Of a DNA stretch of 64,000 nucleotides, positions 11,249 through 48,390 are shown one piece after another. Under the pieces are notes generated by a model, which did not search any database, had not been told where the DNA came from, and worked only from the letters and a program-made list of their open reading frames with translations. A program made the position numbers and the translations under genes. Origin of the DNA: an uncultured Actinomycetes bacterium (GTDB lineage Bacteria > Actinomycetota > UBA4738 > HRBIN12). The first letter of the stretch is position 1. Each line of letters starts with the position of its first letter. The stretch lies in NCBI GenBank assembly GCA_963825635.1, contig CAWGTU010000002.1:58638-122637 (forward strand), read 5' to 3'.

Positions 11249-13522
11249 ATGGCGGCGTCGGCGCTGTTCCCGACCGGCGGCGAGGTCCACGTCGAGGGCC
11301 TCCGTGAACCGGTCACCGTGCGGCGCGACGCCTGGGGCGTGCCCTACATCGAGGCGGCCTCGCTCGACGATCTCTGGTTCGCGCACGGGGTCGTGACCGC
11401 CGGCGAACGGCTGTTCCAGCTCGAGCTCACCCTGCGCGCGGCCAACGGTCGGCTCAGCGAGCTCTTCGGCGAGCGCACCCTCGACGAGGACCGGCTCGCG
11501 CGCACCGTGGGGTTCCATCGGGCCGGCGCCCGTATCGCGGCCGACTGGGACGAGCGATCGACGGCCATGCACGCGCGGTTCCGAGCGGGCGTTCGGGCGT
11601 GGGTCGACGCGATGCCCATCGCACCGCTGGAGTACACGCTGCTCGATACGACCCCGTGGATCCCCGACGACGAGGCGGTGTGGGCATCGGCGTTCGTACT
11701 GCTCGCATGGGGGCTCTCGGGGAACTGGGACACGGAGCTGCTTCGCTCGTGGATCGGGGATGCGGGCGGCGACGACGCGGTCGCTCGGCTCCTGCCGCCC
11801 CTGCCGCCCGATCCTCTCGAGGTCGTGCCCGGCGCCCTCGCCGGCGCCTTGTTCGACGCGGCGCCACGCGCGAAGGGGCAGGGCTCCAACGCCTGGGTGG
11901 TCGCGGGCAGCCGAACCTCGACCGGCGCTCCCCTGCTCGCGAACGATCCCCATCTGCTCGCGATGCAGCCCGGCATCTGGATGGAATGCCATCTCTCGGC
12001 GCCCAGGTACCGGGCGCGAGGCGTGTCGTTGCCGTTCTCCCCGGGCGTGCTGCTCGGTTGTACCGCTCACCACGCCTGGGCAGTCACGAACGTCAGCGGC
12101 GACGTGCAGGATCTGTTCGTCGAGCGCCTGAACGCGGAGCGCACGGCCGCCGAACACGCCGGGGAGTGGGAACCCGTGACCGTGCACCTGGAGGAGATCG
12201 CCGTACGCGGCGAGGAGCACCCGATCACGCTCGAGGTCCTGGAGACCCGCCACGGGCCACTGCTCGACACGTTCGTCTCCGGATCGCTGCGACCCGAGTA
12301 CGCGCCGTTGCCCGACGAGCCGAGCTACGTCCTCTCGTGGGTCGGCCTCGAGCACGGCATCAGGCCCTCGCTCGTGCTCGACGTCGCGCAGGCCCCATCG
12401 TTCGAGGCCTTCCGAGCCGCGGCGCTGGATGGGCTCGCCTGCCCCGGCCAGAACGCCGTGTACGCCGACGTCGACGGCACGATCGGCTACGCGTGCACGG
12501 GCCGCTACCCGGTGCGCTCGAAGGGCGACGGCACCGTGCCCGCCCCCGGCTGGACCGGCGAGCACGGGTGGCACGGCCAGGTGCCGCCCGAGGAGCTGCC
12601 GTGGGGCGCTGATCCTGGCCGGGGATTCCTCGTGACGGCGAACCATCGCGTGCACGACGAGGACTACCCGCACCTGATCGGTCACGACTTCCACCCCTCG
12701 CTCCGGGCTCGGCGCATCGCAGAGGTCCTGGCCGCCCGCGACGACCACGACGTCACCGCGATGGCCCGGCTGCAGACCGACGTCGTCTCGCTCGCTGCGA
12801 TCGAGAACGTCGGCCTGCTGCGCGACCGGATGGGTGCCGTGGACGACGGCGAGCGGGCGTGGGCGATCGGCGTCCTGGCGTCGTGGGACGGCTCGCTGAC
12901 CGCGACGTCGGATGCCGCCGTCATCTACCAGGTCTGGTGCTCGCACATCGCTCGCCTGGCGCTCACACCGACGCTCGGCGACGAGCTGTTCCGCCGCTAC
13001 CACGCGTGGCGTGAGCCGTTCCAGTGCGGCGCGCTCCCCCGCATGCTCCGCGCCGGGGAGCTCGACGCGGAGCTGCTCGCCGAGGCGCTCGACGCCGCCG
13101 TCGCCGAGCTCCGGGCGGTGCTCGGCGAGGACCGGAACGGCTGGCGCTGGGGCGACCTGCACCGGGTGACGCTCGCCCATCCGCTGGCCGCGATCCCGGG
13201 GTTCGAGACGTTGTTCGTGGCCCTCGAGGCGGGTGTCGGCGGGGACGACCAGACCGTGCTGCAGACGGGTGTGGACGCCCGTGACGGGTATCCCGCTGCG
13301 GTGATCCCGTCGTGGCGGGCCGTCTACGATCTGGCCGATCTCGACCGCAGCGTCGGGGTGTTGCCCGCCGGCAACAGCGGGAACCCCGCGAGCCCGCACT
13401 GGAACGACCAGGCGCCGCTCTGGCTCGCCGGCGAGACCCACCCGCTGCCCTTCACCGAGGCCGCGGTCGACGCGGCGACGGTCGCCCTCGCCCGCCTCGT
13501 GCCGGGTACCATCTCGGGCTGA
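11249..13522 (+). CDS. penicillin acylase family protein (Ntn-hydrolase, S45)
   Basis: The SNAWVVAGSRTSTGAPLLANDPHL motif is the beta-subunit N-terminal Ser nucleophile. The size (757 aa) and two-subunit layout fit penicillin or AHL acylases. No obvious signal peptide. Confidence 0.75.
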   Translation: MAASALFPTGGEVHVEGLREPVTVRRDAWGVPYIEAASLDDLWFAHGVVTAGERLFQLELTLRAANGRLSELFGERTLDEDRLARTVGFHRAGARIAADWDERSTAMHARFRAGVRAWVDAMPIAPLEYTLLDTTPWIPDDEAVWASAFVLLAWGLSGNWDTELLRSWIGDAGGDDAVARLLPPLPPDPLEVVPGALAGALFDAAPRAKGQGSNAWVVAGSRTSTGAPLLANDPHLLAMQPGIWMECHLSAPRYRARGVSLPFSPGVLLGCTAHHAWAVTNVSGDVQDLFVERLNAERTAAEHAGEWEPVTVHLEEIAVRGEEHPITLEVLETRHGPLLDTFVSGSLRPEYAPLPDEPSYVLSWVGLEHGIRPSLVLDVAQAPSFEAFRAAALDGLACPGQNAVYADVDGTIGYACTGRYPVRSKGDGTVPAPGWTGEHGWHGQVPPEELPWGADPGRGFLVTANHRVHDEDYPHLIGHDFHPSLRARRIAEVLAARDDHDVTAMARLQTDVVSLAAIENVGLLRDRMGAVDDGERAWAIGVLASWDGSLTATSDAAVIYQVWCSHIARLALTPTLGDELFRRYHAWREPFQCGALPRMLRAGELDAELLAEALDAAVAELRAVLGEDRNGWRWGDLHRVTLAHPLAAIPGFETLFVALEAGVGGDDQTVLQTGVDARDGYPAAVIPSWRAVYDLADLDRSVGVLPAGNSGNPASPHWNDQAPLWLAGETHPLPFTEAAVDAATVALARLVPGTISG

Positions 13523-13523
13523 G

Positions 13524-13784
13524 ATGCCGGTTTCCAAGGGACGCCAGAAGAAGAAGACCCCGCGCTACCGCGCCGCGCCGCAGCAGCCGAAGAAGCGGCA
13601 CCGGTCGAGCCCGCGCTGGTACGGCCCGCTGCTGATCACGCTCATGGCGCTGGGGGTCATCGTGATCGTCGCGAACTACATGGGGCTGATCCCCGGCACC
13701 GACGGCACCGCCTCGTCGGTCTGGCTCTGGATCGGGCTCGGCATCCTCGGCGCCGGCTTCGTCGGCACCAGCTTCTGGTACTGA
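13524..13784 (+). CDS. crgA: cell division protein CrgA
   Basis: 86 aa with a basic N-terminus (RQKKKTPRY ... SPRWYGPLLITLMALGVIVIV) and two TM helices, typical of CrgA. Its position in an origin-proximal region matches Rv0011c. Confidence 0.8.
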   Translation: MPVSKGRQKKKTPRYRAAPQQPKKRHRSSPRWYGPLLITLMALGVIVIVANYMGLIPGTDGTASSVWLWIGLGILGAGFVGTSFWY

Positions 13785-13789
13785 GGACG

Positions 13790-13970
13790 CCGACCGAATC
13801 ACACACGTGTGATCCGTCCACATGTTTCCCACCGCTGTGGACGACCACCTGCGGATCCACCGCCCGTTCCCTCCGTCGACACGTCGTGTGGAGAACCCGG
13901 TGAAGGACCGGTGGAGAACCCCTCGAGAACGTGCCGCTCGCGGTGGAACGTCGGTGGAGAACCTGCCGCC
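13790..13970. repeat. intergenic cluster of DnaA-box-like motifs and a GGTGGAGAACC direct repeat (x3, plus variants)
   Basis: CCGTCCACA at about 13814 and TGTGGACGA at about 13836 form an inverted pair. GTGTGGAGAACCC (13886), GGTGGAGAACCCC (13909) and GGTGGAGAACCTG (13953) are direct repeats, with GGTGAAGGACC and GGTGGAACGTC as variants. A CACACGTGTG palindrome sits at 13802. Confidence 0.6.
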
Positions 13971-13972
13971 GT

Positions 13973-14236
13973 TCAGATGCCCGCGGGCCGTCGCTCGACC
14001 TGCATCTTCTCCCCGCAGTGGCGGGGAACCTGCATCTCACCGAGCCGCGACACCTTGAGCTCGGTGCCGCACTCCCCGCACACGAAGTACACCTCGAGCG
14101 CCTCGACGTCCTCGGCCTCGGCGGGCGCCGGCACCTCGTCGGGATCGGGTGAGAATACGCGCAGCGACGCGATGCCGATGCGCCAGATCAGCGCACCGAC
14201 CAGGATCGCGGTCACCACGAGCAACCAGTCCGGCAT
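13973..14236 (-). CDS. small membrane-anchored zinc-ribbon protein, hypothetical
   Basis: 87 aa with an N-terminal TM helix (LLVVTAILVGALIWRIGI) and a C-terminal CGECG...HCGEK ribbon-like motif. Confidence 0.4.
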   Translation of the reverse strand: MPDWLLVVTAILVGALIWRIGIASLRVFSPDPDEVPAPAEAEDVEALEVYFVCGECGTELKVSRLGEMQVPRHCGEKMQVERRPAGI

Positions 14237-14282
14237 CCACCCACGCTAGCACCCGGGTCGACCGTCCCAGCCGCGCTCGGAG

Positions 14283-15644
14283 CTAGATCACGCCCTGGGC
14301 CAGCATCGCGTCGGCGACCCGTCGGAACCCGGCGATGTTCGCTCCGTGCACGTAGTTCCCGGGCTCCCCGTACTCCTCGGCGGTGTCGCGGCACTGCTCG
14401 TGGATACGCCGCATGATCTCGCGCAACCGCTGGTCGACGCCCTCACGGGTCCAGGACAAACGCATCGCGTTCTGCGACATCTCGAGGCCGCTCACCGCGA
14501 CCCCGCCCGCGTTCGCCGCCTTCCCGGGCCCGTAGAGCACCCCCGCCGTCACGAACTGATCGATCCCCTCGGGCTCGGTGGGCATGTTCGCCCCCTCGCT
14601 CACCAGGAACACACCGTTCGAGATCAGGTTCGCCGCATCCTTGCCGTTGATCTCGTTCTGTGTCGCGCTGGGGAACGCGCAGTCTGCAGGAACCTCCCAG
14701 AGCGCGTTGTGGTCGTCCGACGGATCGGCGGGCGTGAACGTCGCGGTCGGGAACCGCTCCGCGTAGGCCATGATGCGGCCGCGGCGTTCGTTCTTGAGGT
14801 CCATCACCCACGCGAGCTTCTCGGCGTCGATGCCGTCGGGGTCGTGGACGAAGCCGCCCGAGTCCGACAGCGTCACGGGCCTCGCCCCCAGGTGGATCAG
14901 CTTCTCCACGGTGTACTGGGCGACGTTGCCCGAGCCGCTGACGAGGCAGGTCTTGCCCTCGAGCGAATCGTCGCGGGTCCCGAGCATCTCCTGGGCGAAG
15001 TAGACGGCGCCGTAGCCGGTCGCCTCCGGTCTGATCAGGGAGCCACCGATATCGAGACCCTTGCCGGTGATCGCACCGGTGAACTCGTTCGTGAGGCGCT
15101 TGTACTGCCCGAACAGGTAGCCGATCTCGCGGCCGCCGACGCCGATGTCGCCCGCGGGCACGTCGGTGTTCGGCCCGATGTGGCGATAGAGCCCGGTCAT
15201 GAACGCCTGACAGAACCGCATCACTTCCTGCTCGCTCTTGCCCTTGGGATCGAAGTCGGCGCCGCCCTTGCCCGCACCCAGGGGCAGCGTCGTGAGCGCG
15301 TTCTTGAAGACCTGCTCGAACGCGAGGAACTTCAACATGCCCAGGTACACGGTCGGGTGGAATCGAAGGCCGCCCTTGTACGGTCCGATCGCGCTCGACA
15401 TCTCCACCCGGTAGCCACGGTTCACCTGCACCTGGCCGCGGTCGTCGACCCACGAGACGCGGAACGTGATCACGCGCTCGGGCTCCACGAAACGCTCCAA
15501 CACCCTGGCGTCGCGATAGACGGGGAAGCGATCGACGCAGAGCTCGATCGAGCCCGCCGCCTCGCGGACGGCCTGCAGGAACTCAGGCTCGTTCGCGTTC
15601 CTGGCCGTGACGTCGGCCATCAGGCGCCGCACGTACTCGCCCAC
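14283..15644 (-). CDS. gdhA: NADP-specific glutamate dehydrogenase
   Basis: GPYKGGLRFHP signature and the Glu/Leu/Phe/Val dehydrogenase fold throughout (453 aa). Confidence 0.9.
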   Translation of the reverse strand: MGEYVRRLMADVTARNANEPEFLQAVREAAGSIELCVDRFPVYRDARVLERFVEPERVITFRVSWVDDRGQVQVNRGYRVEMSSAIGPYKGGLRFHPTVYLGMLKFLAFEQVFKNALTTLPLGAGKGGADFDPKGKSEQEVMRFCQAFMTGLYRHIGPNTDVPAGDIGVGGREIGYLFGQYKRLTNEFTGAITGKGLDIGGSLIRPEATGYGAVYFAQEMLGTRDDSLEGKTCLVSGSGNVAQYTVEKLIHLGARPVTLSDSGGFVHDPDGIDAEKLAWVMDLKNERRGRIMAYAERFPTATFTPADPSDDHNALWEVPADCAFPSATQNEINGKDAANLISNGVFLVSEGANMPTEPEGIDQFVTAGVLYGPGKAANAGGVAVSGLEMSQNAMRLSWTREGVDQRLREIMRRIHEQCRDTAEEYGEPGNYVHGANIAGFRRVADAMLAQGVI

Positions 15645-20836: not shown

Positions 20837-22001
20837 GCTCCCAGAGGCGCACACGCGGGAGGGATCGGTCACGCGACGACACCGTAGGACGCTCGGCATC
20901 GCCGCGACGGCGGTCGCGCTGGCGACCACGCCGATGACCTCGGCCTTCGCCGGGGGTGGGCCGTCGGTCCGCGTGGTGACCGTCGCCGAGCTCGAGCAAC
21001 CGGTCGGGTTCACGTTCGCTCCCAACGGACGCATCGTCTACCTGGAACGTGCGACCGGCGCGGTGCGTTCGCTCGACCCTCGCACGGGCCGCGATCGGCT
21101 CCTGCACCGCATCACCGGCGTGAACAGCGACGGCGAGCGAGGTGCGCTGGGAGTCGCCCTGCACCCGCGGTGGCCGCGTGAACCCTGGGTCTACGTCTAC
21201 GTCTCGAGGGCCCCGGCCGGCGGCGAACTGCGGAACCAGCTGATGCGCCTGCGCATCCGCGACGGCCGGGCTGTCTCGCGCGAGGTGCTCTTGAACTCGC
21301 CGATCGGCGGTCGCGCCAACCACAACGGCGGTCGCCTCGCGTTCGGCCCCGACGGCAAGCTCTACGTCATGATCGGTGACGGCGGCGAGGACCCCGGCAC
21401 CGCTCAGACGATCGCCGACGAGCCCCGCGGGAAGATCCTGCGCCTGAACCCCGACGGCTCGGTGCCCGCCTCGAACCCCTTCGCCTCGCCCGTCTGGTCG
21501 TTCGGCCATCGCAACTCGATCGGCTTCGCGTTCGACCCCCTCACCGGGCGTCTGTGGGAGAGCGAGAACGGTCCCGAGTGCAACGACGAACTGAACCGCA
21601 TCGTGGCGGGCGGGAACTTCGCCTGGGGTCCGTCACAGGCCTGTGACACGCCGGCGGCGGTCGAGGACACGAACCGCGACGGACCCGAGCCTCGGCGCAT
21701 GCCCGAGTTCACGTTCGCCGCGACCGTGGCCGCGACCGGCGTCGCGTTCTGCGATCGGTGCGGGCTCGGCGCGCGCTACGACGGCACGATGCTCGCGGGC
21801 TGCTCGAACGGTACCTGCAAGGCGACCGTCGGGCCGGTGATGCACGTCCCGCTGACGCCCGGGCGCTGGTCGTTCGCCGGCCCGCCGGCCGACGTTCCCC
21901 TGACGAACCACGACGGCGCGGTGTATTCCATGGAGGTCGCACCCGACGGTCGTATCTACTTCAGCGACGGGCAGGGCATCTACCGGCTGAGGCCGGCATG
22001 A
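20835..22001 (+). CDS. PQQ-dependent sugar dehydrogenase-like beta-propeller (glucose/sorbosone dehydrogenase family), secreted
   Basis: Signal-like N-terminus (RRHRRTLGIAATAVALATTPMTSAFA) followed by GSDH-type motifs (GALGVALHPRW, HNGGRLAFGPDGKLYV, LWESENGPECNDE). Confidence 0.7.
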   Translation: MLPEAHTREGSVTRRHRRTLGIAATAVALATTPMTSAFAGGGPSVRVVTVAELEQPVGFTFAPNGRIVYLERATGAVRSLDPRTGRDRLLHRITGVNSDGERGALGVALHPRWPREPWVYVYVSRAPAGGELRNQLMRLRIRDGRAVSREVLLNSPIGGRANHNGGRLAFGPDGKLYVMIGDGGEDPGTAQTIADEPRGKILRLNPDGSVPASNPFASPVWSFGHRNSIGFAFDPLTGRLWESENGPECNDELNRIVAGGNFAWGPSQACDTPAAVEDTNRDGPEPRRMPEFTFAATVAATGVAFCDRCGLGARYDGTMLAGCSNGTCKATVGPVMHVPLTPGRWSFAGPPADVPLTNHDGAVYSMEVAPDGRIYFSDGQGIYRLRPA

Positions 22002-26900: not shown

Positions 26901-26977
26901 CTGTCGGGACACGCGGGGTCTCCTCTTCGTGCGGTCGGCTCGCCCGGGCATCGTATGCCGCGCGCGGCGCATGGCGG

Positions 26978-27050
26978 TGGAGACGACCGGGATCGAACCG
27001 GCGACCTCCGGCTTGCAAAGCCGGCGCTCTTCCAACTGAGCTACGTCCCC
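26978..27050 (-). tRNA. tRNA-Ala (anticodon TGC)
   Basis: GGGGACGTAGCTCAGTTGGAAGAGCGCCGGCTTTGCAAGCCGGAGGTCGCCGGTTCGATCCCGGTCGTCTCCA. The cloverleaf folds, the anticodon is TGC, and the G3:U70 identity pair is present. Confidence 0.9.
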
Positions 27051-37241: not shown

Positions 37242-37264
37242 GGGAGGAGCCCTCCTTCCGGGAG

Positions 37265-37339
37265 TGGGCCTGGATGGACTTGAACCATCGACCTCTTCCT
37301 TATCAGGGAAGCGCTCTAACCGGGCTGAGCTACAGGCCC
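37265..37339 (-). tRNA. tRNA-Ile (anticodon GAT)
   Basis: GGGCCTGTAGCTCAGCCCGGTTAGAGCGCTTCCCTGATAAGGAAGAGGTCGATGGTTCAAGTCCATCCAGGCCCA. Complete cloverleaf with anticodon loop CTGATAA. Confidence 0.9.
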
Positions 37340-39333: not shown

Positions 39334-41784
<2,451 letters not shown>

Positions 41785-41836
41785 CCGCTGCGCCTTCGGC
41801 TACCTGAGCGACGTGCCACGGTGTGTGATCAGCTCC

Positions 41837-46555: not shown

Positions 46556-46781
46556 CTACTGTCTTGAAGGAAAGAAGAACATCGGTAGTAGTAGGCACTG
46601 TGGAAACCTGCATGAACGGGCCGTTCCTGCAGCGTAGCCGGGCGGTGCGACATGTGGGAAACGTGTGGGGAAAACGTGTCGCTTCCGACGGACCCCGAGA
46701 ACCAGGCTCCGGTTCCCACCGGCAACGCCGACGTTGTCCACAGATCGGCGCACACTCCTGGGAGCGGTCCGGCGGGCGCGT
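46556..46781. other. oriC (dnaA-dnaN intergenic region with DnaA boxes and an AT-richer segment)
   Basis: A perfect TTGTCCACA sits at 46734–46742. Degenerate boxes are CTGTGGAAA (46597), TGTGGGAAA (46654) and TGTGGGGAAAA (46665). The relatively AT-rich stretch gaaggaaagaagaacatcggtagtagtagg lies at about 46565–46595. Confidence 0.65.
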
Positions 46782-48215
46782 TCATGCGGCGCGCACCCGA
46801 CCGCGGATGATGCGTGTGAGGTCTTGGACCTGGCGGAACGTGGCGTCGCGAGCCCGCATCTCGTCCTCGACTTTGCGGATGCCGTGCAGCACGGTCGTGT
46901 GGTCACGGCCGCCGAAGATCTCGCCGATCTTCAGCAGCGACAAGCCTGTGCACTCGCGCGTGAGGTACATCGCGATGTGCCGGGCCTGGGTGAGCGGACG
47001 AGACCGCGACTTCGACATCAGGTCCGCCGGCGAGAGCGAGAAGTACTTCGAGGTCTCGTCGAGGATCAGCGGCGGCGGGATCTCGTTCTGGGTCTGAGGG
47101 ATGAGGTCCTCGAGCGCACGCTCGGCGAGTGTGTTGTCGATCGGCTGCCCGGTCAGCTCGCTCCAGGCGACCACCCGAACGAGCGCTCCCTCGAGCTCAC
47201 GCACGGACTGGTCGAACTTGGAGGCGACGAACTCGATCACGTCGGCAGGCACGGTGATGTGCTCGCGCTCGGCCTTCAGCTGCAGGATCGCGATGCGGGT
47301 CTCGAGGTCCGGCGGCTGCACGTCGACGCAGAGACCCCAGCGGAACCGGTTCACCAGCCGCTCCTCGAGCCCCGAGAGCTCGTGCGGGGGACGATCGGAC
47401 GCGATCACGATCTGCTTGCCGGCCCCGTGCAGGTGGTTGAACGTGTGGAAGAACTCGGTCTGGGTTTCCTCGCGCTTCGCCAGGAACTGGATGTCGTCGA
47501 CGAGCAGCACGTCGACCTCGCGGTAGCGCTGGCGGAACGCGTCGCCTCCCTGGCGCTCCCGGACCGCGGTGATGAACTCGGTCACGAACTGTTCCGACGT
47601 GACGTACTTCACGCGCAGCGCGGGTGCGAGCCGGTACATGTGGTGGCCGACCGCGATCAGCAGGTGCGTCTTGCCGAGGCCCACGCCTCCGTAGATGAAC
47701 AGCGGGTTGTACGCCGTCGACGGCGGCGCCTCGGCCACGGCCATCGCCGCGGCGTGAGCGAACCGGTTGCTCGGTCCGGGCACGAAGGCGTCGAACGTGT
47801 AGCTCGGGAACGGCAAGCCGGGCGCGCCGAGCGATCCGCGCGCGGCCGACGGCGCCTCGGGAGCGCCGATCGCGGCGTACGAGGCAGGGGATCGATCGGC
47901 CCCGTCGAGGGGACCGCTCTCGTACGTTCCGGTGGCCTGTTCGCGGAGGGCCCCGTCGATCGAGAGCTCGATCTTCAGCGGGCGTCCGGCCGCTTCCTGG
48001 GCGGCGCGCTCTATCAGCGGAAGATGGTTGTGCTGCAAACGTTCACGAACCAGGGGGCTGGGCACGGCGAGCGTGATCGAGTCCTCGGCCAGGCTGACGG
48101 GCCGCACGTCCGCGAACCACATGACGACGGTGGTCTCAGGGAGCTCCTCGCGTGCCCGATCCAGTACGTGGGCCCACGCGTCTCGAGCCTCGTGTTCGGG
48201 GGACGCTACCGCCAT
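46782..48215 (-). CDS. dnaA: chromosomal replication initiator protein DnaA
   Basis: AAA+ Walker A ([11 protein letters not shown]), sensor motifs and a C-terminal DnaA-box-binding domain. ATG 48215 ([14 protein letters not shown]). Confidence 0.9.
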
Positions 48216-48390
48216 ATGGAATCCACAGCACCTTTCCACACCGGTGGAAAACTCGGGAAGGTTCGTCGTGGCGCCGCACCGTTCGAGGGCTCGGGTCGCC
48301 GGGGGGAAGGCGGGCCGCACGTTAGCACACCGTCCTGGCGGCCCACCGGCCGCCCCTGGGGTCTTGACACTCTTTCTCATGTCAAGGGCT

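Follow-up and report, generated by a model that had tools for sequence, protein, structure and literature searches.

A conserved DnaA-box cluster downstream of crgA in Actinomycetota, a candidate counterpart of the mycobacterial DnaA interaction site

Away from oriC, the control of DnaA is understood in detail only for E. coli, through datA and DARS, and in part for B. subtilis. Loci of the datA type promote the hydrolysis of DnaA-ATP or titrate the protein, and their deletion leads to early or excessive initiation, whereas DARS stimulates the release of ADP from ADP-DnaA and its deletion delays initiation. Negative clusters of DnaA boxes near oriC have precedents in B. subtilis and in the D78 cluster of Streptomyces. 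In Actinomycetota, one extra-origin site with a phenotype has been mapped, the Rv0010c-Rv0011c region of M. tuberculosis. It belongs to the top five of the regions bound by DnaA in vitro (Hicks et al. 2020, PLoS Pathog, PMC7738170), with binding documented by IDAP-seq, EMSA, and ChIP-seq, and for the M. smegmatis counterpart in vivo (PMC7738170). Clinical SNPs and IS6110 insertions cluster in the palindrome of this site, and the clinical palindrome mutations give longer cells, raised isoniazid tolerance, and low-level resistance (PMC7738170). The authors discuss dnaA mutants and site mutants as alike, with longer cells and an unchanged initiation rate, and the site mutations phenocopy dnaA alleles that they liken to hypomorphs; in the dnaA mutants themselves, the initiation rate did not change measurably and the expression of Rv0010c and Rv0011c was unaltered (PMC7738170).

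Here, we describe a locus that resembles this site in a 64-kb window, by which we mean the whole stretch of DNA analysed. The 188-bp gap (13785-13972) between crgA and a convergent gene contains a palindrome followed by about eight DnaA-box-like 9-mers, arranged as a three-box module and a five-box array on one strand in helical phase. The features are as follows, with conservation values given for the box cores.

13524-13784, plus strand: crgA (Pfam PF06781 CrgA match, E 4.9e-12)
13798-13813, no strand assigned: palindrome ATCACA-CACG-TGTGAT, with invariant 6-nt arms and a free 4-nt spacer
13814-13822, plus strand: proximal box 1, CCGTCCACA, core TCCACA 91% conserved
13825-13833, plus strand: proximal box 2, TTTCCCACC, 11 bp after box 1, core 89% conserved
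13836-13844, minus strand: proximal box 3, TCGTCCACA (the plus strand reads TGTGGACGA), core 97% conserved
13853-13861, plus strand: weak extra box-like 9-mer, GGATCCACC, scoring 6/8
13887-13895, minus strand: distal box D1, TTCTCCACA, GTGGA core 93% conserved
13899-13907, minus strand: distal box D2, TCCTTCACC, degenerate, 12 bp after D1, core 92% conserved
13910-13918, minus strand: distal box D3, TTCTCCACC, core 96% conserved
13942-13950, minus strand: distal box D4, CGTTCCACC, degenerate, 32 bp (about three helical turns) after D3, core 100% conserved
13953-13961, minus strand: distal box D5, TTCTCCACC, 11 bp after D4, core 82% conserved
13973-14236, minus strand: convergent gene for an 87-aa protein, right-hand bound of the element, GC3 0.91
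46556-46781, no strand assigned: oriC, the dnaA-dnaN gap, our internal reference for the DnaA boxes of this genome
48219-48251, plus strand: second three-box module (two tandem boxes and one opposed; GAATCCACA, CTTTCCACA, TTTTCCACC), just upstream of the dnaA start

The element begins 14 nt past the crgA stop codon. Its palindrome is the only perfect match in the window. In the module that follows, two tandem boxes face a single opposed one, with 11-bp steps and gaps of 2 and 2 bp, so that box 3 is opposed to box 2 across a 2-bp gap with the CACA ends facing; boxes 1 and 3 also form an 8-nt inverted repeat (CGTCCACA/TGTGGACG). The steps of the distal array are 12, 11, 32, and 11 bp. The initial annotation had proposed a cluster of DnaA-box-like elements between the convergent 3' ends of crgA (plus strand) and the 87-aa open reading frame (minus strand), about 33 kb from oriC, and the distance we measured is 32.6 kb. 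All the elements that it listed are in place: CCGTCCACA at 13814-13822 (plus strand), TGTGGACGA at 13836-13844, and three copies of the direct repeat GTGGAGAACC at 13888, 13911, and 13954. The reverse complement of this repeat, described there as DnaA-box-like, corresponds to D1, D3, and D5 (copies 1, 2, and 3) on the minus strand. The palindrome at 13798-13813, the box at 13825-13833, and the weaker boxes at 13899-13907 and 13942-13950 had not been listed. What had appeared as three repeats is part of the five-box array. The 87-aa protein has a transmembrane segment and a Cys-rich ribbon but no match in Pfam; an exact copy occurs in public metagenome-assembled genomes, within a cluster of 67 members.

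The crgA-gap cluster is far from what chance would produce. TCCAC or GTGGA occurs at 7 per 200 bp in the gap, against a window mean of 0.39, which makes this the densest spot of the 64 kb. When TTGTCCACA was used as an independent consensus over the 64-kb window, with at most 2 mismatches, the gap scored 5 hits per 190 bp where the mean is 0.20, about 25 times the background. This density is reached in the 64 kb only by the crgA gap and oriC, and our own Poisson estimate for it is about 2e-6 per 190-bp window. The three-box module, detected with thresholds that we defined ourselves, was found in the 64 kb only in the crgA gap and upstream of dnaA (46782-48216, minus strand), and in 0 of 20 shuffles; the second copy corresponds in position to the DnaA-bound rpmH-dnaA region of mycobacteria. 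The boxes of the window are weaker than those of its relatives, since the gap has no perfect TTGTCCACA and its best boxes have one mismatch. Over 134 boxes, the consensus is (T/C)(T/C)N-T-C-C-A-C-(A/C), with T4 at 89%, C5 at 93%, C6 at 98%, A7 at 94%, C8 at 97%, and A/C at position 9, although the underlying frequency matrix is self-defined and partly circular, being anchored on the TCCAC core. This consensus is the relaxed actinobacterial DnaA box, the motif to which two of the 9-mers had initially been assigned.

The crgA gap and oriC of the same genome carry the same type of box in similar number: with up to 2 mismatches allowed, oriC has five boxes, one of them a perfect TTGTCCACA at 46734, and the crgA gap of this window has as many good boxes. 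However, oriC alone has the dnaA-dnaN position, TAGTAGTAG trios beside a box (at 46586), and an AT-rich stretch, in which lies the 30-mer with the lowest GC content (0.37) in either gap. In the crgA gap, the minimum 30-bp GC is 0.47, and we found no AT-rich unwinding element, no DnaA-trios, and no TAG/CTA repeats.

We compared the window with about 90 related loci. Searches with the CrgA of the window matched only uncultured soil lineages, and cultured references were reached with the CrgA sequences of M. tuberculosis and S. coelicolor, and then with the database proteins that these returned. The sample left out Micrococcales, Bifidobacteriales, and Corynebacteriales other than mycobacteria. 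Across 19 distinct relatives, conservation is 82-100% in the cores of the boxes and the arms of the palindrome but 0.47-0.51 in the spacers, and all parts of the crgA-linked locus are under purifying selection. Within the palindrome, the arms are 100% and the spacer 70% conserved in these relatives. The fetched loci contain 49 perfect copies of it, all within 300 bp after crgA and with 19 different spacers; no perfect copy occurs elsewhere in 293 kb of these loci. The boxes themselves are often stronger in relatives, many of which have a perfect TTGTCCACA or TTATCCACA: position 3 of the module is a perfect TTGTCCACA in most, position 2 reads TTCTCCACC, TTATCCACC, or TTGTCCACA, and the D3 position reads TTGTCCACC or TTATCCACC. 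The weak 9-mer at 13853-13861 lies in a poorly conserved spacer (47%), is seen only in the closest relatives, and is probably outside the conserved element. Thus, the idea that the region might be fortuitous, which the initial annotation had entertained, did not hold: boxes are as dense as in oriC, about 25 times the background, and the repeat array is kept in relatives with a clear footprint.

Further away, 45 of 66 distinct crgA loci (CrgA identity 35-100%) have a three-box module no more than 300 bp past crgA, among them those of Streptomyces and of an Acidimicrobiia genome, whereas roughly one unrelated copy was found in about 290 kb elsewhere, counting both strands. The 3' end of crgA precedes the element in every lineage examined, and all related loci were anchored on crgA. 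The polarity is fixed in 42 of the 45 positive locus clusters, while the distance from the crgA stop to the element varies from 14 to 209 nt. Both neighbours change between lineages: an acylase or DUF881 gene upstream, and downstream a Zn-ribbon gene/gdhA, a thiolase-like gene (named from sequence only), a rhomboid gene, or Rv0010c. Among close relatives, the 3' end of the 87-aa gene is always kept. The module is found past the crgA 3' end in many lineages of Actinomycetota, whatever the neighbours. Its widely conserved part is the three-box core, not the distal array. In Streptomyces, crgA is followed by tandem TTAYCCACA boxes and an opposed TTATCCACA, and the gap between the opposed boxes, 2-3 bp in the group of the window, is there about 24 bp. 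The wide conservation of this crgA-linked site appears not to have been reported before in the literature that could be searched.

The mycobacterial site is the closest described relative of this locus. The gap between crgA (Rv0011c) and Rv0010c of M. tuberculosis contains the same palindrome and boxes, and both are also present in Mycolicibacterium. The M. tuberculosis copy, AATCACACGCATGTGATT (2354-2371 of our locus L015), lies about 66 nt upstream of the Rv0010c start; we take it to be the published site, since its position fits both the "65 bp upstream" and the "GAATC" insertion point of that work (PMC7738170). Like the site in the window, it is directly downstream of crgA and near oriC, and its AATCACA-N4-TGTGAT palindrome abuts a three-box module with one perfect box, just as the palindrome of the window abuts three boxes. 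There are also differences. The polarity of the mycobacterial module is flipped, with one box followed by two opposed ones and gaps of 1 and 4 bp in M. tuberculosis, and mycobacteria lack the phased five-box array that is added in the window. Furthermore, Rv0010c is co-directional, so that the mycobacterial site is also a 5' region, while the downstream gene in the window is convergent. The conclusion drawn at first from convergence, that the region is not a promoter, is therefore right for the window but does not extend to mycobacteria, where the site is upstream of Rv0010c. On these grounds, the window site is a predicted member of an already known class, the DnaA interaction sites of the Rv0010c-Rv0011c type, and we consider it somewhat probable that the crgA gap is the counterpart of the mycobacterial "cryptic DnaA interaction site" itself.

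What could such a site do? We consider it very probable that it binds DnaA, and the initial proposal of a replication-control site made of DnaA boxes outside oriC gains support from the density, the footprint, the consensus, and the DnaA binding of the mycobacterial counterpart. We would place the odds slightly in favor of a DnaA-binding control locus, and give about the same modest preference to an action in trans on the availability or activity of DnaA. DnaA would dock first on the best boxes (box 3, D1, D3, and D5) and would then fill the weaker phased neighbours cooperatively. The product could be a small opposed complex together with a head-to-tail oligomer of about five protomers, for a total of eight or more. 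Since the locus has no unwinding element, it could not fire replication and would act on the DnaA pool instead; at 32.6 kb from oriC, it would be duplicated soon after initiation. For this lineage, the reading to which we commit is that of a negative sink or inactivator, resembling datA or the DnaA-box clusters, but the negative sign of the effect is held tentatively, at rather less than even confidence. The phylum-wide core has only three boxes, too few for a stoichiometric sink, so that catalysis, by hydrolysis or nucleotide exchange, may be the better fit. The unchanged initiation rate in M. tuberculosis argues against a strong effect on initiation frequency, and the phenocopy of hypomorph-like dnaA alleles by site mutations is more in line with a positive than with a negative regulator.

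The known negative systems share part of this picture. As in datA, in the oriC-proximal clusters of B. subtilis, and in D78 of S. coelicolor, the window site has DnaA boxes outside oriC and no unwinding element. The clusters of B. subtilis and those of Streptomyces are also close to oriC like the window site, and tandem phased boxes suit the formation of oligomers. However, neither the B. subtilis clusters nor D78 have a link to crgA, and the window site, besides a palindrome of its own, has many fewer boxes than would a classical sink. Three clusters were described in S. coelicolor in 2006, and one of them other than D78, H69, may be the cluster linked to crgA. The crgA gap has the datA-like combination of a box cluster outside oriC and no unwinding element, but the IHF consensus WATCAANNNNTTR, representing a site essential for the function of datA, had no match on either strand of the gap. 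We know of no classical IHF in Actinomycetota, and by analogy the palindrome could host a factor with a similar role.

The alternative that survives best, though we consider it unlikely, is a DARS-like site, in which an opposed pair of DnaA molecules on the three-box core would promote ADP release and so regenerate ATP-DnaA, making the locus a positive regulator. DARS is defined by a three-box core with boxes I and II opposed, and the putative boxes of the window show this topology, with box I opposed to the tandem II and III. The resemblance to the E. coli DARS1 and DARS2 cores extends to a non-origin, non-coding location with one box opposed to two tandem ones at gaps of a few bp. In DARS1, the order is TTATCCACT(+) N5 TGTGGATAA(-) N3 TGTGTATTA(-), with CACA ends facing and tight gaps, although these are 5 and 3 bp compared with 2 and 2 bp in the window, and the strongest box occupies the middle in DARS1 but is the lone opposed one in the window. 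The M. tuberculosis module, with its gaps of 1 and 4 bp, even shares the polarity of DARS1. A catalytic role is attractive for a three-box site too small for titration, and it is the three-box core, not the distal array, that is widely conserved; the hypomorph-like phenotype of the M. tuberculosis site mutants points the same way (PMC7738170). Several observations weaken this idea. The same layout occurs upstream of dnaA in the window and may simply be the generic high-affinity landing pad for DnaA in this clade. The gap between opposed boxes is not conserved (2-3 bp against about 24 bp in Streptomyces), the window site lacks the IHF and Fis sites of DARS, and the head-to-tail array of five boxes resembles an oligomerisation or sink module and not an exchange site. 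Moreover, we know of demonstrated DARS activity only from E. coli and bacteria related to it.

Returning to the preferred trans-acting reading, if it were the only role, the strict linkage to the 3' end of crgA would be left unexplained. A coupling in cis addresses this point and is, in our view, a little less likely still than a DARS-like function. DnaA bound to the element could be a roadblock or terminator for crgA transcription, or read-through from crgA could strip the DnaA complex, in either case tying a division gene to the status of the initiator. The element is always 3' of crgA with a fixed polarity (42 of 45) even though both neighbours change, and no intrinsic terminator was predicted between crgA and the boxes. 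The cell-length phenotype of the M. tuberculosis mutants, with no change in initiation rate (PMC7738170), agrees with such a link, and the regulation of E. coli datA by read-through transcription provides a precedent (PMC10950094). Yet Rv0010c and Rv0011c kept their expression in the M. tuberculosis dnaA mutants (PMC7738170), the distance between stop codon and element is variable, roadblock termination by DnaA in this clade would be an argument by analogy, and the linkage could reflect the inertia of a stable gene block close to oriC.

Another regulator could own the site, a possibility that we rate as remote. The 11-bp repeats would then be iterons of a response regulator (PhoP PHO boxes, or MtrA/GlnR) and the palindrome a dimeric helix-turn-helix operator. 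Direct repeats phased at 11 bp are typical of the OmpR family, the motif of MtrA, a degenerate direct repeat, has a periodicity of about 11 bp, and D2 reads TTCACC, the core of the PHO consensus GTTCACC. Although the spacing agrees, the positions that are kept are T-C-C-A-C (89-98%; C5 in 93% of boxes), the third base varies, and the 5' end is rich in T/C, as in a DnaA box and not as in GTTCACC or GTnAC. In addition, the AAC tail needed for MtrA/GlnR is poorly conserved in D1, as are the tails in general, many relatives have a perfect TTGTCCACA or TTATCCACA, and DnaA binding was demonstrated for the mycobacterial counterpart (PMC7738170). We therefore rejected PhoP, MtrA, and GlnR iterons, and the unrelated iteron array that the initial annotation had kept as an option is disfavoured, the core being TCCAC and neither the TTCAC of PhoP nor the GTnAC of MtrA/GlnR. 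The palindrome is a different matter, as its arms never drift towards TCCACA in 49 copies, which suggests a factor other than DnaA; for the palindrome alone, a non-DnaA regulator may be at work. HigA2, part of a toxin-antitoxin pair of M. tuberculosis, binds ATCAC-N6-GTGAT in vitro, including the M. tuberculosis site, but needs 8 uM, and as an M. tuberculosis antitoxin it cannot explain conservation in distant lineages. The operators of CRP/GlxR, Rex, LexA, BldD, and NrdR and the parS site, in the forms we take them to have, do not fit the order and spacing of the half-sites.

The remaining readings carry very little weight. A second or relic replication origin is highly improbable: good DnaA boxes are as numerous as in the annotated oriC gap, but the site has neither an unwinding element (minimum 30-bp GC 0.47 against 0.37) nor trios like the TAGTAGTAG beside the oriC box, is not adjacent to dnaA or dnaN, and the cumulative GC skew has no turning point at 13.9 kb. 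Chance GC-rich repeats, or plain terminator hairpins for the two convergent genes, are the least credible of all and effectively refuted by the conservation data: although actinobacterial terminators often lack U-tracts and the plus-strand centroid fold keeps few helices, including those of the palindrome and of the inverted repeat of boxes 1 and 3, the enrichment contradicts chance, the conservation is at the level of sequence, with invariant arms, no compensatory changes, and equally conserved non-palindromic boxes, and no promoter or terminator was found in 13500-14300. A structured RNA, riboswitch, or small RNA was rejected as well, since the gap has no Rfam match and folds no better than shuffled sequence (z = 0.0 and -0.85).

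These results show that the site is no mycobacterial oddity, since the module is conserved after crgA in lineages far apart. Its internal architecture is fixed, with a palindrome and two tandem boxes facing one opposed, and some clades add an oligomerisation array. Tentatively, and at rather less than even confidence, the locus may be an ancient cis-regulatory element that is wide in Actinomycetota, made of a crgA-tied module and, in many lineages, a palindrome. It would be an analogue of DARS or datA with a palindrome-binding partner protein, coupling the state or availability of DnaA to division, possibly via crgA read-through, and its filament array of five boxes would have been expanded in the lineage of the window. 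Whatever its mechanism, the comparison constrains the function, which would be tied to the 3' end of crgA or to the proximity of oriC and not to Rv0010c, and the palindrome arms would make sequence-specific contacts. Streptomyces and M. smegmatis could be genetically easier models for a question of clinical relevance.

The 188-bp gap that follows crgA in the window, which derives from an uncultured member of the Actinomycetota (G+C content, 69.5%), contains a conserved and precisely organized set of DnaA-type boxes. Scoring 9-mers against TTNTCCAC[A/C] gave the layout below, listed with the flanking genes, the origin, and a second copy of the three-box module (two tandem boxes facing an opposed one).

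Features of the crgA gap and related sites (window positions)
13524-13784, + strand: crgA, left flank (Pfam CrgA match, E 4.9e-12)
13785-13972: gap holding the element, 188 bp
13798-13813, both strands: palindrome ATCACA-CACG-TGTGAT
13814, + strand: box 1, CCGTCCACA
13825, + strand: box 2, TTTCCCACC
13836, - strand: box 3, TCGTCCACA
13887, - strand: distal box D1, TTCTCCACA
13899, - strand: distal box D2, TCCTTCACC
13910, - strand: distal box D3, TTCTCCACC
13942, - strand: distal box D4, CGTTCCACC
13953, - strand: distal box D5, TTCTCCACC
13973-14236, - strand: convergent 87-aa ORF, right flank (GC3 0.91)
46556-46781: oriC, the dnaA-dnaN gap, about 226 bp and very compact
48219-48251: second three-box copy, GAATCCACA, CTTTCCACA, then opposed TTTTCCACC, at steps of 13 and 11 bp

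Box 1 directly adjoins the palindrome, boxes 1 to 3 succeed one another at steps of 11 and 11 bp, and the CACA ends of the opposed boxes 2 and 3 face each other across a 2-bp gap. Beyond a variable spacer of about 40 bp, D1 to D5 follow at steps of 12, 11, 32, and 11 bp; all box steps lie near multiples of the helical repeat. The initial annotation had seen here DnaA-box-like 9-mers and a direct repeat between convergent genes, and had favored a titration or replication-control site, or else the iterons of another regulator. The observation holds and its main interpretation is supported: CCGTCCACA (13814), TGTGGACGA (13836), and GTGGAGAACC (13888, 13911, and 13954) are all where it placed them, and crgA does converge with the 87-aa ORF. 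The three GTGGAGAACC repeats correspond to D1, D3, and D5 and belong to the larger five-box array. Within the gap we found no unwinding element or DnaA-trios, no RNA signal, and no predicted promoter or terminator.

The penicillin-amidase-family gene upstream ends at 13522 and crgA begins at 13524 (region 11249-13784), and crgA therefore looks cotranscribed with a pair of ABC-transporter genes and this acylase; its Mycobacterium and Streptomyces counterparts instead diverge from a DUF881 gene. The 87-aa protein matched no family in a Pfam search. It has an N-terminal transmembrane segment and a Cys-rich ribbon (CGECG...HCGE), occurs identically in several public MAGs, and belongs to a 67-member cluster. 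The 3' end of its gene, convergent with crgA, is kept in all close relatives, and gdhA comes next on the - strand.

Chance does not account for the cluster. The 5-mer TCCAC/GTGGA reaches 7 occurrences per 200 bp at the site, the densest spot in the window (mean, 0.39). The initial annotation had proposed comparing box density with the background as a possible refutation, and the cluster withstands it. For this we used the Streptomyces/Mycobacterium consensus TTGTCCACA, derived without this region, and allowed up to 2 mismatches: matches average 0.20 per 190 bp across the window, and 5 are reached only in the crgA gap and oriC. The layout of two tandem boxes plus one opposed occurs twice in the 64 kb, in the crgA gap and at 48219-48251, and in 0 of 20 shuffles.

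With oriC taken as the dnaA-dnaN gap, the site lies 32.6 kb from it, in agreement with the roughly 33 kb first estimated. The origin has a perfect TTGTCCACA at 46734 and four weaker boxes, and of the two gaps compared it is the one with the most AT-rich 30-mer. An AT-rich stretch (46564-46593) is followed by TAGTAGTAG (DnaA-trios), a 4-nt GC spacer, the box TGTGGAAAC, and further boxes, the last of them the perfect TTGTCCACA; at about 46714, GGTTCCCACCGG resembles the distal repeat unit GGTTCTCCACCG. The second three-box copy, immediately upstream of the dnaA start codon (about 48216, minus strand), is probably a dnaA autoregulation site, and its position corresponds to the rpmH-dnaA DnaA peak of mycobacteria. 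Two tRNA genes also lie on the minus strand of the window: tRNA-Ile(GAT) (37264-37339), about 2 kb beyond gyrA (39334-41799), and tRNA-Ala(TGC) (26976-27050), about 10 kb farther from oriC. In M. tuberculosis, an Ile/Ala tRNA pair likewise adjoins gyrA.

How widely is this arrangement conserved? A reference-genome scan anchored on CrgA gave 14 loci. All 13 close relatives, and an Acidimicrobiia genome with 40% identity, have 3 to 7 boxes after crgA, with flanks in the same relatives at 0 to 0.33 boxes per 190 bp; the array is conserved, a point the initial annotation had left to be checked. Box 3 is a perfect TTGTCCACA in most relatives, and their distal boxes read TTGTCCACC, TTATCCACC, or TTTTCCACC. 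An alignment of 19 distinct gaps gave majority-base fractions of 1.00 in both palindrome arms, 0.89 to 0.97 in proximal box cores, 0.82 to 1.00 in distal cores, 0.70 in the 4-nt palindrome spacer, and 0.47 to 0.51 in the other spacers. The 134 pooled boxes give the profile T/C, T/C, N, T (89%), C (93%), C (98%), A (94%), C (97%), A/C, that of the relaxed actinobacterial DnaA box. Since the core served as the anchor for these boxes, some circularity enters the profile.

Adding 80 metagenomic CrgA loci (35 to 100% identity), we found that 63 of 94 usable loci carry the three-box module no more than 300 bp after crgA, and that five further copies lie elsewhere in about 287 kb searched on both strands. 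Four of these are still downstream of crgA (the mycobacterial gaps and L094, all with flipped polarity, and L098 read on the reverse strand); the fifth, in L099, lies 418 bp beyond it. After near-duplicates were merged, 66 locus clusters remained; the module is present in 42, present but flipped in 3, and absent from 21. Loss or relocation of the element is therefore possible: about one-third of distinct crgA loci lack the module, mostly those with low-identity CrgA and 57 to 66% GC, and L039 lacks it although its CrgA is 72% identical to that of the window. The metagenome loci in which it was not recognized within 300 bp are L039, L071-L074, L078-L083, L088, L093, and L097; some module-less loci keep one or two good boxes. 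The neighbors differ by lineage. On the upstream side the window has the acylase, and both Mycobacterium and Streptomyces have DUF881. Downstream of crgA lie the Zn-ribbon gene and gdhA in the window, a rhomboid gene in Streptomyces, the codirectional Rv0010c in mycobacteria, and, in more distant loci, what by eye reads as a thiolase. Hence, the element travels with the crgA 3' end.

No feature of the locus is more conserved than the palindrome, which in M. tuberculosis is also the mutational hotspot. Its perfect form has 49 copies, all after crgA, none elsewhere in 293 kb, and 19 different spacers. Fixed arms around a free spacer are the signature of a sequence-specific dimer contact. The only part of an arm (ATCACA) that also occurs in the DnaA box is the CACA end, and in none of the 49 copies do the arms drift toward TCCACA. 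Candidate binders are DnaA in a special mode or a partner analogous to IHF at datA or DARS2. The antitoxin HigA2 fails to explain such wide conservation because it is, to our knowledge, confined to M. tuberculosis and close relatives. In a 2024 paper, M. tuberculosis HigA2 bound ATCAC-N6-GTGAT, including the mycobacterial site, in vitro at 8 uM. The window holds one other near-match to ATCACA-N4-TGTGAT (2 mismatches), GTCACAGGCCTGTGAC at 21632-21647, a count no higher than chance: two or more matches arise in 20 of 100 shuffles.

We retrieved M. tuberculosis-type and Mycolicibacterium crgA loci, in which the Rv0011c-Rv0010c gap reads AATCACACGCATGTGATT-CATCCCCAC-TGTTGATAG-CGTC-TGTGGATAA. In M. 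tuberculosis the same palindrome as in the window is followed by TCATCCCCA (+), CTATCAACA (-), and a perfect TTATCCACA (-). In vitro, M. tuberculosis DnaA enriches this gap among its top five regions, the other four being oriC, the region upstream of dnaB, Rv3843c, and rpmH-dnaA; EMSA confirmed binding, and in M. smegmatis the homologous region gives a ChIP-seq peak (PMC7738170). In clinical isolates, convergent SNPs and IS6110 insertions (at "GAATC") map to a "small palindromic region 65 bp upstream of Rv0010c," and engineered palindrome SNPs gave longer cells and low-level isoniazid resistance, as in dnaA variants (PMC7738170). Judging by sequence, that region is the palindrome described here. 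Hicks et al. (2020) interpreted its arms as two DnaA-box-like sequences, weighed titration against nucleotide exchange without deciding, and saw no correspondence in other species (PMC7738170). In two Streptomyces genomes, crgA is followed by tandem TTAYCCACA boxes 12 bp apart and an opposed TTATCCACA 33 bp on, and the palindrome is absent after crgA in both. About 115 bp past this module, a second opposed pair, GTTCCCACA and TGTGGACAA (start-to-start, 33 bp; L017, 2970-3015; L018, 3000-3045), has a layout unlike the same-strand distal array of the window.

We propose that DnaA docks on the best boxes and then fills the phased weaker ones, which would yield an opposed complex of three protomers plus a head-to-tail oligomer about five protomers long. 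Because the locus cannot open DNA, it would modulate the DnaA pool. For the lineage of the window we commit, tentatively and with rather less than even confidence, to the site acting negatively, as a sink or inactivator, because a filament-type array has been added in this lineage, because at 32.6 kb from oriC the site is duplicated early, and because there are precedents in the oriC-proximal DnaA-box clusters of B. subtilis and in Streptomyces D78. However, the widely conserved core has three boxes, too few for titration, and mutants of the M. tuberculosis site look like dnaA alleles of a hypomorph-like kind, their initiation rate being unchanged (PMC7738170). These mutants and the three-box core make a DARS-like catalytic role a serious rival, since the core topology equals that of E. 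coli DARS1 (TTATCCACT N5 TGTGGATAA N3 TGTGTATTA). Strict linkage to crgA, at a fixed polarity, makes a cis coupling to its transcription a further possibility. Finally, the same layout upstream of dnaA suggests that it may simply be the standard high-affinity DnaA pad of the clade.

The element is best read as a crgA-linked DnaA-binding site of the kind first mapped in mycobacteria, here with a lineage-specific five-box extension. Relative to the literature searched, and with the caveat that a 2006 Streptomyces paper may already list the crgA-adjacent cluster, two points appear to be new: that the three-box module and palindrome are widely conserved at the crgA 3' end, and that the topology is DARS-like, for a locus whose mycobacterial counterpart is bound by DnaA and matters for the cell cycle (PMC7738170).
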